Shown piece after piece: positions 12,537 to 35,054 of a DNA stretch of 40,367 nucleotides; position 1 is the stretch's first letter, and each line of letters starts with the position of its first letter. Under the pieces are notes generated by a model. The model was not told where the DNA came from. It ran no database searches and saw nothing but the letters and a program-made list of their open reading frames with translations. The DNA comes from a virus. Lineage: Duplodnaviria; Heunggongvirae; Uroviricota; Caudoviricetes. The stretch lies in the IMG/VR virus record IMGVR_UViG_2728369591_000003. One strand, 5' to 3'. The translations under genes were made by a program, and so were the position numbers.

Positions 12537-12851
12537 GTATTTTTAAGTGGCGAATGCTATCTTTTCGCATCATATTGACCTTTTAATCGTTCAGGCTTAT
12601 AGTTCCCGCCGTCGTAGCAAATTCTGCGACCAGGTTTGACAGCCTGAATGATTGTGCGGACAACCGCAGATTTCCGATATTGCGGTATTTTTGTGTCCGT
12701 AAAACCGCGTTACGCCCAAATTATGGTGGGGCGTGATGGGGAGGCTTCGGCCTGCTGGTTTCACAATCGCCAGTCTGTCAACCCTGTCACGTCCTGCCAC
12801 CTGTTTGACAGCGGGTAGCAGGTTGTTAAACCTGATTGTGAGGCCGTAACT

Positions 12852-15100: not shown

Positions 15101-15946
15101 ATGCTGGCTAAAGTCACTTTCCTGAGCTGTATAACGATGAGCGATTTTACTTTTTCTGGCTATGAATTGGCCTGCTTTGTAACACACTCCGGTCTATCCC
15201 GTAGCGCCGGGCATATCCTGTCGCAATGTGCAAATCTCGCGGCAACAACCAGTGAATACTTCATTCACAAGCCTCACCGCCTGATCGCGGCAGAAACTGG
15301 TTATAGCCAATCAACCGTCGTTCGTGCATTCCGTGAAGCTGTAAACAAAGGAATTCTGTCTGTAGAGATTGTTATCGGCGATCACCGTGAACGTCGCGCT
15401 AACCTGTACCGGTTTACGCCATCCTTTTTGGCCTTCGCACAACAAGCCAAAAATGCGCTGATTGAAAGCAAATTAAAGATCTCTTCAGCGGCAACCAAGG
15501 TTAAAGCTGTTCTCGCTAAGACATTGGCTTTATTTAATTTTTTATCCACACCCCCATGTCAAAATGATACCCCCTCCCCCTGTCAGGATGACGTGGCAAT
15601 AAAGAATAAGAAGTCACAAGTTAAAAAAACAAAAAGATCAGTTTCCGGCGGTGCCGGAACGACCAGACTCAAAAAATTGACTTCATGGATCGCTGAGGCA
15701 AAAGCAAAGGCTGACAATCTGCGGTTATCCAAAAAACGCGCTCAAAAACATGAGTTCAAGCAGAAAGTAGAGGCGGCAGCGCGGAAATATGCTTACCTGA
15801 AGAACAAGCGTTCTCCTGATATTGGCGGGGTATCAAACTTCGATAATCTGCCGCATTGCATGACGGTAAACGAAGCTCTTAATGCGGTTTTAGCCAAAAA
15901 TAAAGATAACGAACAATGGGGTATACCTGCAGGATTCAGAGGGTGA
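15101..15946 (+). CDS. repL: RepL-like lytic replication initiator (281 aa)
   Basis: Follows kilA in one operon under a C1 operator, as in P1; length matches. Basic Lys-rich C-terminal half. Alternative start at 15137 possible. Confidence 0.55.
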   Translation: MLAKVTFLSCITMSDFTFSGYELACFVTHSGLSRSAGHILSQCANLAATTSEYFIHKPHRLIAAETGYSQSTVVRAFREAVNKGILSVEIVIGDHRERRANLYRFTPSFLAFAQQAKNALIESKLKISSAATKVKAVLAKTLALFNFLSTPPCQNDTPSPCQDDVAIKNKKSQVKKTKRSVSGGAGTTRLKKLTSWIAEAKAKADNLRLSKKRAQKHEFKQKVEAAARKYAYLKNKRSPDIGGVSNFDNLPHCMTVNEALNAVLAKNKDNEQWGIPAGFRG

Positions 15947-15996
15947 TAGATTGCTCTAATCTGGAGTCACCTGGCGTTTTCAGTTTGAGGTCGGAG

Positions 15997-16242
15997 ATGC
16001 AATCTGATTTTTTACAGTTAGCGATCGCTTTTGCAGGATATGTTTGTATTGGCTTCTGTGTATACATGATCAGCCGAAAAATGCTTGTCGATATCGACCG
16101 CAAAGAACAAGCAGAGGAGATCTTAGTATGGATTTTCTTTGGCGCGGTCTGGCCATTAGGGATCATGTTTGCTGCAACATTTCTTCTGATGTGGATATTC
16201 ACCCTTCCAGGTGATTTCTATAGAAAAAAAGCCAGACATTGA
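15997..16242 (+). CDS. Small membrane protein (81 aa, two predicted TM helices)
   Basis: ATG at 15997 preceded by GAGG/GGAG. Hydrophobic stretches LAIAFAGYVCIGFCVYMI and ILVWIFFGAVWPLGIMFAATFLLMWIF. The longer track ORF from 15916 overlaps the repL 3' end. Confidence 0.45.
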   Translation: MQSDFLQLAIAFAGYVCIGFCVYMISRKMLVDIDRKEQAEEILVWIFFGAVWPLGIMFAATFLLMWIFTLPGDFYRKKARH

Positions 16243-16365
16243 TACAATCGTTGCGGGTGCTTGAGGCTATCTGCTTCAGGCATTACCCGAAAAGCAGATA
16301 GAAGAAAGCCCCAGATAACATTACGCGTCCTGCAAGACGCTTAACATTAATCTGAGGCAATATCT

Positions 16366-16572
16366 ATGCTTAGCATACGTAGATTAGCCTCTTACCGACC
16401 AAAAGGTCAAGGAGAAGCAGGCTATGAAGCAGCAAAAAGCGATGTTAATCGCTCTGATCGTCATCTGTTTAACCGTCATTGTGACGGCACTGGTAACGAG
16501 GAAAGACCTCTGCGAGGTACGAATCCGAACCGGCCAGACGGAGGTCACTGTCTTCACAGCCTACGAATCTGA
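16366..16572 (+). CDS. mok: Mok-like overlapping reading frame (modulator of hok translation)
   Basis: 68-codon ORF in a different frame, starting 58 nt upstream of hok and overlapping almost all of it, the arrangement seen in hok/mok/sok loci. Confidence 0.35.
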   Translation: MLSIRRLASYRPKGQGEAGYEAAKSDVNRSDRHLFNRHCDGTGNEERPLRGTNPNRPDGGHCLHSLRI

Positions 16573-16579
16573 AAGGTAA
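16424..16579 (+). CDS. hok: Hok/Gef-family type I toxin (51 aa)
   Basis: Translation MKQQKAMLIALIVICLTVIVTALVTRKDLCEVRIRTGQTEVTVFTAYESER aligns along its full length with plasmid R1 Hok (..[26 protein letters not shown]..). Not in the ORF track because it is shorter than 60 aa. Confidence 0.85.
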   Translation: MKQQKAMLIALIVICLTVIVTALVTRKDLCEVRIRTGQTEVTVFTAYESER

Positions 16580-16654
16580 GAGACCTGGCGGGGAGAGATC
16601 CTCGCCACTCTTCGTGTGTCAGGTATCCTCAATGCACCCTTTCCTCTCCAAATA

Positions 16655-16680
16655 AAAAAGCTCCCGAAGGAGCTTTAAAA
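16655..16680. terminator. Bidirectional rho-independent terminator between hok and the convergent late operon
   Basis: AAAAAAGCTCC cgaa GGAGCTTT: a GC stem flanked by an A-run on one side and T-rich sequence on the other. Confidence 0.6.
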
Positions 16681-16695
16681 TACAAGGGATGACTC

Positions 16696-17205
16696 TTAAT
16701 CCCACTCAATCCAGTTGTAGACGATACGAAGTGACGGGCGCACAGCGGCAGTCACATCTTCGGTACTAAAGTCGATTGCATCACTGTAGATTTTGCAGTC
16801 CAACATTTCAATTGTTGTAGCAGCTTTTGTCACAGCGTTAACCCCGGAAGATTTGGATTCAGGGGTCGCAGCCATCGTGATATCAACATAGTCCTTCGCC
16901 GCAATGCGATCTTTAATGAACTGAAGAATATCGCCTTCGATAGTCTCCACGCACTGGACCTGGATTTCCCCAGAGTTTCGAATTGGACCGTGCTGGTTGA
17001 ACTTCACACCATTCGGACCATAGTCCTCCACATCCTCGCGGGTCATTTCAGGAATTTGCGACGTGCGAACCAGTACGCTGATATCTTCATGGCCTGCAAA
17101 AGTGAGCTGGAATTCAGAAGATACCAGTCGTTCGCCTTTGGCCGCGTTGGCAGTATAGCGGCCCTTAATAAATTTACGGTTTCCCTTAGTGTTATTGTGC
17201 CCCAT
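16696..17205 (-). CDS. Phage tail/baseplate protein (169 aa)
   Basis: ATG at 17205 with AAGGA RBS; last gene of the minus-strand late operon that contains the sheath gene. Confidence 0.5.
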   Translation of the reverse strand: MGHNNTKGNRKFIKGRYTANAAKGERLVSSEFQLTFAGHEDISVLVRTSQIPEMTREDVEDYGPNGVKFNQHGPIRNSGEIQVQCVETIEGDILQFIKDRIAAKDYVDITMAATPESKSSGVNAVTKAATTIEMLDCKIYSDAIDFSTEDVTAAVRPSLRIVYNWIEWD

Positions 17206-33098: not shown

Positions 33099-33174
33099 GA
33101 TGGTGTAGCTCAGTTGGTAGAGCGCCTGCCTTGTAAGCAGGATGTCAGCGGTTCGAGTCCGTTAATCGGCACCA
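33099..33174 (+). tRNA. tRNA-Thr(UGU)-like gene with an imperfect acceptor stem (possibly degenerate)
   Basis: 76 nt ending in encoded CCA. D arm (GCTC AGTTGGTA GAGC), anticodon arm (CCTGC CTTGTAA GCAGG, anticodon UGU) and T arm (AGCGG TTCGAGT CCGTT) are canonical. The 5' acceptor strand GATGGTG pairs with the 3' strand AATCGGC at only 5 of 7 positions (two G-U pairs, two mismatches). Confidence 0.45.
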
Positions 33175-34978: not shown

Positions 34979-35054
34979 GGCCCTTTAGCTCAGTGGTTAG
35001 AGCTGGCGACTCATAATCGCACGGTCACCGGTTCAAGTCCGGTAGGGGCCACCA
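34979..35054 (+). tRNA. tRNA-Ile2 (anticodon CAU, lysidine type)
   Basis: 76 nt. Acceptor GGCCCTT/AGGGGCC, D arm GCTC AGTGGTTA GAGC, anticodon loop CTCATAA, T arm ACCGG TTCAAGT CCGGT, CCA encoded. Close to E. coli ileX rather than initiator or elongator tRNA-Met. Confidence 0.85.

Follow-up and report, generated by a model that had tools for sequence, protein, structure and literature searches.

A Hok-type toxin gene between repL and the late genes of a P1-like phage raises two questions: whether the locus is a complete hok/mok/sok system, and what such a phage would use it for. The window (the whole stretch of DNA analysed, 40,367 nt) comes from a P1-like phage, with its C4 antisense RNA, kilA, repL and the late genes bplB, pmgG and gp21. 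A preliminary description had placed a complete Hok/Mok-type locus in the gap that separates repL from the late (bplB) operon; all canonical elements were indeed identified there by sequence. The span that it gave, 16300-16680, captures the locus but not its start, since 16300 lies downstream of the promoter and 45 nt into the mRNA; the hok unit extends over about 16221-16639, with 16676 as its end if a backbone hairpin is counted. We consider it probable, with good confidence, that the locus is an intact type I hok/mok/sok cassette, that it belongs to the HokD/HokW/Rac subgroup and replaces rlfA-rlfB-pmgF, and that it likely serves post-segregational killing. The features of the region are:

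15101-15946: repL, the upstream neighbour of the substituted segment
15997..16242, plus strand: companion gene, 81 aa, two predicted membrane helices (PHROG 3772, hydropathy)
16221..16248, plus strand: hok promoter, with -35 TAGAAA at 16221-16226, a 16-nt spacer, TG at 16240-16241 and -10 TACAAT at 16243-16248
16255..16639, plus strand: predicted full-length, blunt-ended hok mRNA, 385 nt, the analogue of the 398-nt R1 species (Rfam start, fold)
16255-16266, plus strand: tac, the 5'-end element GGGUGCUUGAGG, predicted to pair with fbi, or within a 5' hairpin after 3' trimming
16267..16301, plus strand: local leader hairpin CUAUCUGCUU / AAGCAGAUAG (fold)
16374-16304, minus strand: predicted Sok antisense RNA, about 71 nt (the 933W sokW misc_RNA maps here)
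16354..16391, plus strand: Sok-target hairpin of the refolded mRNA, GAGGC...AUCUAUG[CUUAGCAUA]CGUAGAU..GCCUC
16366-16572, plus strand: mok frame, 68 aa, overlapping hok in a different frame (ORF list)
16410-16381, minus strand: candidate sok promoter, with -35 TTGACC at 16410-16405, an 18-nt spacer and -10 TAATCT at 16386-16381
16424-16579, plus strand: hok toxin gene, 51 aa, with the SD AAGGAG at 16409-16414 (ORF list, Pfam)
16586..16607, plus strand: GC-rich 3'-UTR hairpin (folds; helix 17, four compensatory pairs)
16612..16639, plus strand: fbi (fold-back inhibition) region (folds, inverted repeat)
16657-16676: hairpin AAAGCUCC-CGAA-GGAGCUUU of the P1 backbone (terminator scan)
16696-17205, minus strand: bplB, the downstream neighbour, of the late operon

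The toxin itself is readily recognized. The reading frame that had been called a 51-aa Hok homologue matches Pfam HOK_GEF (PF01848) over the whole profile (1-42/42) at 78.7 bits (cut-off 22; E = 2.4e-22) and PHROG 251, 'MokW-like host killing', at 110.7 bits. It keeps both Cys, the TRKxLCE core, the C-terminal AYES and the invariant pattern TRK-LCE...R-G..E...YE. The preliminary description had allowed for a chance similarity lacking the conserved Cys and the YES motif; these residues are present and, together with the Pfam, PHROG and Rfam scores, rule out a chance ORF. Two NCBIfam Hok-family HMMs scored below their curated cut-offs (NF007279, 49.5 bits vs 73; NF007290 (HokA), 38.1 bits vs 89); they model other Hok subgroups, and the PGAP name HokD was presumably assigned to the identical protein by another rule. 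The overlapping mok-like frame was likewise confirmed. Its start codon precedes the hok ATG by 58 nt and has an SD of its own, GAGG at 16354-16357, and its layout is that of the annotated Rac mok. Its product matches PHROG 37205 at 75 bits, and the exact protein occurs on at least 1000 contigs.

Upstream of these frames, the promoter scan scored the hok promoter at 9/12 consensus matches, with a TG before the -10, and this -10 corresponds in alignment to TAGAAT in the hok loci of 933W and Rac. If transcription begins as in the R1-type locus, the first base of the hok mRNA would be G16255 or close to it. An Rfam search for Sok and hok mRNA elements, which had been proposed as a check, matched RF01794 ('sok') at 16255-16429 on the plus strand, with 114.3 bits against a gathering threshold of 59 (E = 1.9e-25; model 1-157). 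Because the match lies on the plus strand and its last positions are at the hok AUG, the model represents the hok leader, with Sok encoded opposite.

The predicted fold of the full-length mRNA has a minimum free energy of -153.9 kcal/mol, with G16255 paired to C16639, and a z of -8.8 (3' hairpin included). In this fold, and as an inverted repeat in the DNA, GGGUGCUUGAGG at the 5' end pairs with CCUCAAUGCACCC at 16627-16639, some 360 nt away, while the remaining part of fbi, 16612-16626, is predicted to pair with the mok initiation region, 16366-16380. With its first 12 nt paired to its last 13 and the adjoining segment paired to the mok start, the full-length RNA would thus be closed. The preliminary description had also pointed to long-range complementary segments in the leader, CTATCTGCTT and AAGCAGATAG. 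These segments exist (16267-16276 and 16292-16301) but are separated by a loop of only 15 nt, so that they form a local leader hairpin; the true long-range pair is tac-fbi.

A set of 127 related loci was collected, drawn from viral contigs and from a sample with a single genome for each species. To assess the pairing, we aligned 46 distinct loci, which came from Escherichia, Kluyvera, an Enterobacteriaceae isolate, Erwinia, Kalamiella, a metagenome-assembled genome and an R1-type plasmid. In this alignment, 92.2% of cells pair, vs 35-44% when the partners are slid, and there are 36 compensatory pairs, vs 9-18 in the slid controls and 17.7 in shuffles. The tac-fbi helix (helix 1) is paired in 98.9% of cases and near-invariant in the subgroup, which makes covariation within it uninformative in these 46 loci. 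The leader hairpin (helix 2) is 95.7% paired with two compensatory pairs, and helices 5 and 6 together hold eight (helix 6, 5/7 pairs). Around 90 loci in many genomic contexts share similarity that starts at 16243-16255 and stops at 16639/16640. The conserved unit therefore has the -10 hexamer at one end and the final base of fbi at the other, and such exact limits are what selection on the whole transcript is expected to give.

The same RNA is predicted to adopt a second state. When it is shortened from the 3' side as far as the 16586-16607 hairpin, the predicted fold shifts and the 5' end makes its own hairpin (16259-16267/16273-16281), whose pairing is kept at 99.5% across the loci. The 16586-16607 hairpin is the presumed road-block to 3' exonucleolytic trimming, as in the R1 model (PMC1635323). 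The refolded mRNA would present the Sok-target hairpin, in which the mok SD (16354-16357) lies together with the mok AUG (16366), and whose loop, CUUAGCAUA, has a YUNR motif. It has a local folding energy of -13.8 kcal/mol, pairs in 89.3% of cells vs 23-57% when slid, and equals the hairpin of the Rfam consensus structure.

Facing this hairpin on the minus strand, the predicted Sok has a single-stranded 5' tail, a long stem-loop and a U-rich 3' end, GGGGCUUUCUUC, with a predicted fold of -35 kcal/mol (z = -6.0). It covers the mok SD and AUG; the mok AUG and the target loop both find their complement in its 5' tail. The TTGACC that had been proposed as a sok -35 lies exactly where stated, at 16405-16410 on the opposite strand. 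The hexamer occurs at chance level, with 21 copies in the window vs 20.65 expected, so the evidence lies in its homology-defined position: TTGACC/TAATCT occupy the same alignment columns as TTGCGC/TATCCT in the R1-type locus and TTGCCT/TAACCT in 933W. We take TTGCGC to be the sok -35 of the R1-type locus from the mapped R1 sok promoter, an annotation that the record itself does not carry. The promoter scan made no sok promoter call in this region, where TAATCT has only 3/6 consensus matches and the spacer is 18 nt.

One further element had been assigned to the locus, a terminator after hok. A hairpin does exist at 16657-16676, but it does not belong to the hok unit: it falls in the P1 homology that is restored from 16654, outside the cassette, and it was scored as a terminator, with a T-run, on the minus strand only, the stem being followed by TTT on the plus strand. 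We therefore rejected it as part of the cassette; for the bplB operon on the minus strand it makes a good terminator, for the hok transcript only a weak candidate. The terminator scan found no strong plus-strand terminator after fbi. The R1 model needs only trimming of precursors back to the blunt-ended form (PMC1635323). Judged from the sequence and its predicted folds, the analysis shows all elements of a Gerdes-type hok/mok/sok system, those predicted for Sok included, to be present and intact.

How would such a cassette work? The extended -10 promoter would start a hok mRNA of about 385 nt near 16255, and the convergent TTGACC/TAATCT promoter would yield a 71-nt Sok directed against the mok SD and AUG. 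By the models for R1 and hokW, the closed full-length mRNA would be stable, neither translated nor bound by Sok, until slow 3' trimming to the 16586-16607 hairpin releases the 5' end, which would then refold into its own hairpin and expose the Sok-target hairpin (16354-16391). As long as the phage-plasmid is present, abundant and unstable Sok would bind the trimmed mRNA and RNase III would cut the duplex; in blocking mok translation, Sok would block hok translation too. Upon loss of the plasmid prophage, or a collapse of transcription, Sok would decay first, Mok and Hok would be translated, and Hok would depolarise the inner membrane.

A collapse of transcription may also be brought about by an invading phage. 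If the invader's transcription shut-off depleted Sok, Hok would kill the infected cell before the invader's cycle is finished and so protect sister lysogens. The architecture in the window is the same as that of R1 hok/sok, which on a high-copy plasmid lowered T4 plating by 42% and plaque size by about 85%, according to the figures cited in PMC8621323. However, the T4 effect as cited there is weak and seen only at high copy, whereas P1-like prophages are kept at about a single copy. Activation by 3' trimming, whose half-life in R1 is tens of minutes (PMC1635323), is also slow against the T4 cycle. A search of the PADLOC defence models gave no match for Hok or for its 81-aa neighbour, and membership in a defence system was rejected on this ground. 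We regard phage exclusion as an unlikely role.

The surroundings of the cassette bear on its role as well. In reference P1 (NC_005856) and P7, rlfA-rlfB-pmgF lies between repL and bplB; the order repL-rlfA-rlfB-pmgF-bplB is not that of the window. Homology to reference P1 breaks off at window position 15960 and restarts at 16654, with 1826 bp of P1 (rlfA-rlfB-pmgF) swapped for 693 bp. The preliminary description named phd-doc, and no hok locus, for P1; the cassette is indeed absent from reference P1, which has rlfA-rlfB-pmgF in its place. The substituted segment consists of the hok cassette and the 81-aa membrane-protein gene. The mechanical annotation gave the latter as a 108-aa ORF, which was dropped: residues 28-108 correspond to the whole of PHROG 3772 (profile 1-81/81; 181 bits; function unknown), pointing to an 81-aa product that starts at 15997. 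The two genes are tightly apposed, the hok -35 sitting within the 3' end of the 81-aa gene, whose stop codon, TGA, shares bases with the TG of the hok -10. A distribution check found the 81-aa gene solely beside the P1-type hok copy, and a partnership with hok in other phages was accordingly rejected; on at least 1000 contigs its product is labelled 'hypothetical protein'.

The cassette has the same orientation as repL, about 300 nt downstream of it, with only a weak hairpin (16199-16214) in between, and a partial C1 operator is kept at the substitution junction. This arrangement would suit a helper of lysis: on induction, as has been shown for hokW-sokW of Stx phage Sp5, Sok would fall and Hok would rise, and membrane damage would speed or complete lysis and increase phage release, with sense read-through from the C1-controlled kilA-repL feeding or deregulating the locus during lytic growth. 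P1 has a holin, antiholin and endolysin system of its own, which counts against a need for such help. A read-through transcript, being extended at its 5' end, would also lack the proper 5' end for tac functions. The closest tested relative, hokW-sokW, doubles Sp5 release after mitomycin C (PMC8621323), an effect that is modest at about 2-fold; that the only tested close homologue has this other role, phage release, also weighs against post-segregational killing. The two roles are compatible, and we view help in lysis as possible though doubtful.

A more specific proposal would wire hok into the lytic switch for dual use, as an addiction module in lysogeny and a lysis aid on induction. Lying directly downstream of C1-repressed kilA-repL, behind the retained half of the operator Orlf, hok would be reached by induced sense read-through that collides with the convergent sok promoter and silences it. 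Hok would then be a timed membrane-permeabilising aid to P1 release, or a fail-safe killer once lytic replication begins. We consider this proposal improbable.

How widely is the module found? At least 255 PLSDB plasmids carry it at 99-100% identity; most of them are non-mobilizable, their size is about 90-118 kb, and they represent P1-like plasmid prophages. Among 5426 complete E. coli genomes, at least 235 contain the whole junction. On at least 1000 contigs, a protein identical to this Hok carries the PGAP name 'type I toxin-antitoxin system toxin HokD'. Phage records sharing the module at 99% or more include phi456, vB_EcoM-Ro157c2YLVW and three 'P1' isolates; some phage records label the locus 'hypothetical protein' or mislabel it 'MokW', and Sok goes without annotation. 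The novelty implied by the preliminary description does not stand: the module is common and annotated as HokD, and the substitution was remarked upon in a 2019 paper that mentions an 'antibacterial toxin' in passing (PMC6906374; Venturini et al.). A literature search returned no work on what hok does in P1-like elements, only passing mentions, and 'hok' in papers on P1-like plasmids refers to other plasmids of the same strains. The module is an unremarkable representative of a family that has been studied in depth, and it is annotated already.

Such a distribution might also be that of a selfish or decaying passenger, a mobile hok unit lodged in a recombination hot spot that brings the phage no benefit and may have lost part of its activity, as several hok loci on the E. 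coli K-12 chromosome have. In P1-like plasmids, the stretch from repL to bplB is known to vary (PMC9603915, PMC6906374), with rlfA-rlfB-pmgF itself described as variable by Zhao et al. 2022 (PMC9603915). Homologous hok cassettes occur in 4748 of the 5426 complete E. coli genomes, typically several in each. Some natural variants carry IS186 between hok and fbi, in the 3'-UTR, and hok is deleted in vB_EcoM-673R5 (locus L005), so that the module is dispensable. Conservation among P1-like plasmids may reflect recent spread instead of selection. Against a passenger, every element needed for function is intact in the window copy, and the hok allele is about 2.5 times commoner in PLSDB than rlfA-rlfB-pmgF (at least 255 vs 99 records). 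We judge a mere passenger to be quite improbable.

We return to post-segregational killing. phd-doc lies outside the 40,367-nt window, and its co-occurrence with hok is known from MH422554. This relative, 99% identical, carries both the hok module and phd-doc; hok is thus an additional toxin-antitoxin module, as the preliminary description had supposed. Since the carriers are P1-like plasmid prophages and this near-identical relative keeps phd-doc, a second addiction module is favoured. By analogy with the known systems, the most likely role of the cassette is post-segregational killing that stabilises a low-copy plasmid prophage alongside phd-doc.

At the repL-bplB position, the textbook P1 genome represents the minority allele. 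Most natural P1-like phage-plasmids, many of them with resistance genes, have a second, RNA-based toxin-antitoxin module, which may add to their persistence. The practical value of this result lies in annotation and in the reading of P1 biology; proof of a role of hok in P1-like stability or release would extend a known paradigm rather than open a new one.

Among known systems, the cassette is closest to phage-borne ones. Over 16243-16639 (397 bp), it has 86.5-87% nucleotide identity to 933W hokW-sokW and 90.3% to Rac hok, and its Hok protein is 92% identical to HokW, 92% to Rac Hok and 43% to R1 Hok. In hokW-mokW-sokW of the Stx phages Sp5/933W (AF125520), tac, fbi, the leader hairpins and the position of Sok are those of the window. 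hokW-sokW also resides on a temperate phage, but on an integrated lambdoid one, whereas the window is from a P1-like plasmid prophage. A difference of 1 nt, GGTCAAGG in the window vs GG-CAAGG in 933W, puts mok out of frame with hok in the window (58-nt offset) and in frame in 933W (57-nt offset). We take the mok-hok offset in R1's own sequence to be 58 nt as well. The sok -35 and spacer also differ, being TTGACC and 18 nt in the window vs TTGCCT and 17 nt in 933W. hokW-sokW is a toxic type I pair in which sokW neutralises the toxin (Takada et al. 2021, PMC8621323). The Sok-recognition segment of the window, 16357-16380, differs from that of 933W, which makes cross-neutralisation unlikely.

The highest nucleotide identity outside P1-like elements, the 90.3% given above, is to the hok of Rac-type prophages (MN652886, KU052037), which shares with the window the mok frame offset and the sok -35 and -10. 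Rac hok has an intrinsic terminator of its own right after fbi, whereas the window cassette stops at fbi and is followed by the P1 hairpin; the Hok C-terminus reads TVFTAYESER in the window vs AVFTAYEPEE in Rac. hokD/relF of the E. coli K-12 Qin prophage is grouped with the Rac type, and HokD is the name that PGAP gives to the P1-type protein. K-12 hokD is not known to have a functional mok and sok.

phd-doc of P1 has the same presumed purpose, the killing of cells that lose the plasmid prophage, but it is a type II system made of a protein antitoxin and a Fic-family kinase toxin, whereas hok combines an RNA antitoxin with a membrane peptide. R1 hok/sok (parB) has all its elements in common with the window and arranged alike: promoter, tac, leader hairpin, Sok terminator stem, mok SD/AUG, sok promoter (a candidate one in the window) over the SD region of hok, hok itself, 3' hairpin and fbi. 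In the window leader, the Sok terminator stem is extended by 17 nt relative to the Rfam consensus, and the leader's 5'/3' pairing, compared by eye, is GGGUGC/GCACCC vs GGCGC/GCGCC in the R1 type. The R1 hok mRNA exists as a 441-nt primary, a 398-nt blunt-ended and a 361-nt active form (PMC1635323), and the alternation between tac-fbi and the 5' hairpin predicted in the window is the one described for R1. R1 hok/sok is carried by a low-copy plasmid replicon, the setting in which post-segregational killing makes sense.

A match to RF01794, the Rfam family named 'sok', spans 16255-16429 of the window and ends at the hok AUG. It lies on the sense strand of hok and therefore represents the hok leader rather than the antisense strand. 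As expected in a P1-like genome, Rfam also identified two tRNA genes and elements of P1 immunity I, namely the C4 antisense RNA with its a1/b1 targets:

12597-12650, 12719-12804, 33099-33171 and 34979-35051: immunity-I elements and two tRNA genes (Rfam)

Across the related loci that we compared, the cassette is most variable at 16357-16380, the segment that contains the site of Sok recognition and the start of mok. It covaries with the masking 3' segment (16612-16626), with compensatory changes in 5 of 7 pairs of helix 6 in the predicted hok mRNA fold. With this pattern, every hok copy would have its own Sok specificity.

Two kinds of natural variant were found among P1-like relatives. In three P1-like contigs (L013, L016 and L022), the locus is interrupted at GGAGAGATCC, from position 878 onward, which corresponds to 16592-16601 in the window and to the loop of the hairpin in the hok 3'-UTR. 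The inserted sequence (CATAAGCGCTAACTTAAGGG...) is one that we take to be an end of IS186. Such an insertion parts hok from the 3' fold-back inhibition element (fbi), and fold-back inhibition should therefore be abolished in these three variants. The insertion site agrees with the target duplication reported for IS186B in pSvP1 (PMC6906374). In the P1-like phage vB_EcoM-673R5, positions 2234-2388 of the fetched locus (L005) correspond to window 16235-16389; this phage retains the hok promoter with the leader and the stretch encoding Sok as far as the sok -10, and unrelated DNA has taken the place of the sok -35 and of the SD and ORF of hok. This locus is a remnant without a toxin.

Two features lie immediately upstream of hok:

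15997-16242, + strand: gene for a protein of 81 aa (PHROG 3772, function unknown) that is predicted to have two membrane helices
16199-16214, + strand: weak terminator-like hairpin, TCACC-CTTCCA-GGTGA, then TTTCTATAGA

The TGA stop of the 81-aa gene overlaps the TG of the extended -10 of hok, and the gene was found only beside P1-type hok. At least 1000 contigs encode it, labelled 'hypothetical' in every case. The hairpin sits within the 3' end of this gene, immediately 5' of the hok -35, and could partially insulate hok from kilA-repL read-through. Further upstream, the substitution has its left breakpoint within the P1 C1 operator Orlf (Op55) at 15951-15961, where ATTGCTCTAAT is kept and the other 6 bp are changed; C1 control downstream may or may not have survived.

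Copies of hok were also present on short contigs from non-enterobacterial assemblies. A 275-bp contig of Acinetobacter idrijaensis (L096) matches window 16436-16690 with 100% identity, P1 junction included, while a 431-bp contig of Xanthomonas pisi (L108) carries a lambdoid-type copy with only 87.7% identity. Both are probably assembly contamination.

In the window, as in Rac, the mok and hok ATGs are 58 nt apart (16366 and 16424), and the two frames differ because of this offset. In the Stx phage 933W and an R1-type IncFII plasmid, by contrast, the offset is 57 nt (716/773 in L002; 394/451 in L006), so that 'mok' is in frame with hok and extends Hok at its N-terminus. A one-base indel close to the sok -35 toggles between the two states.
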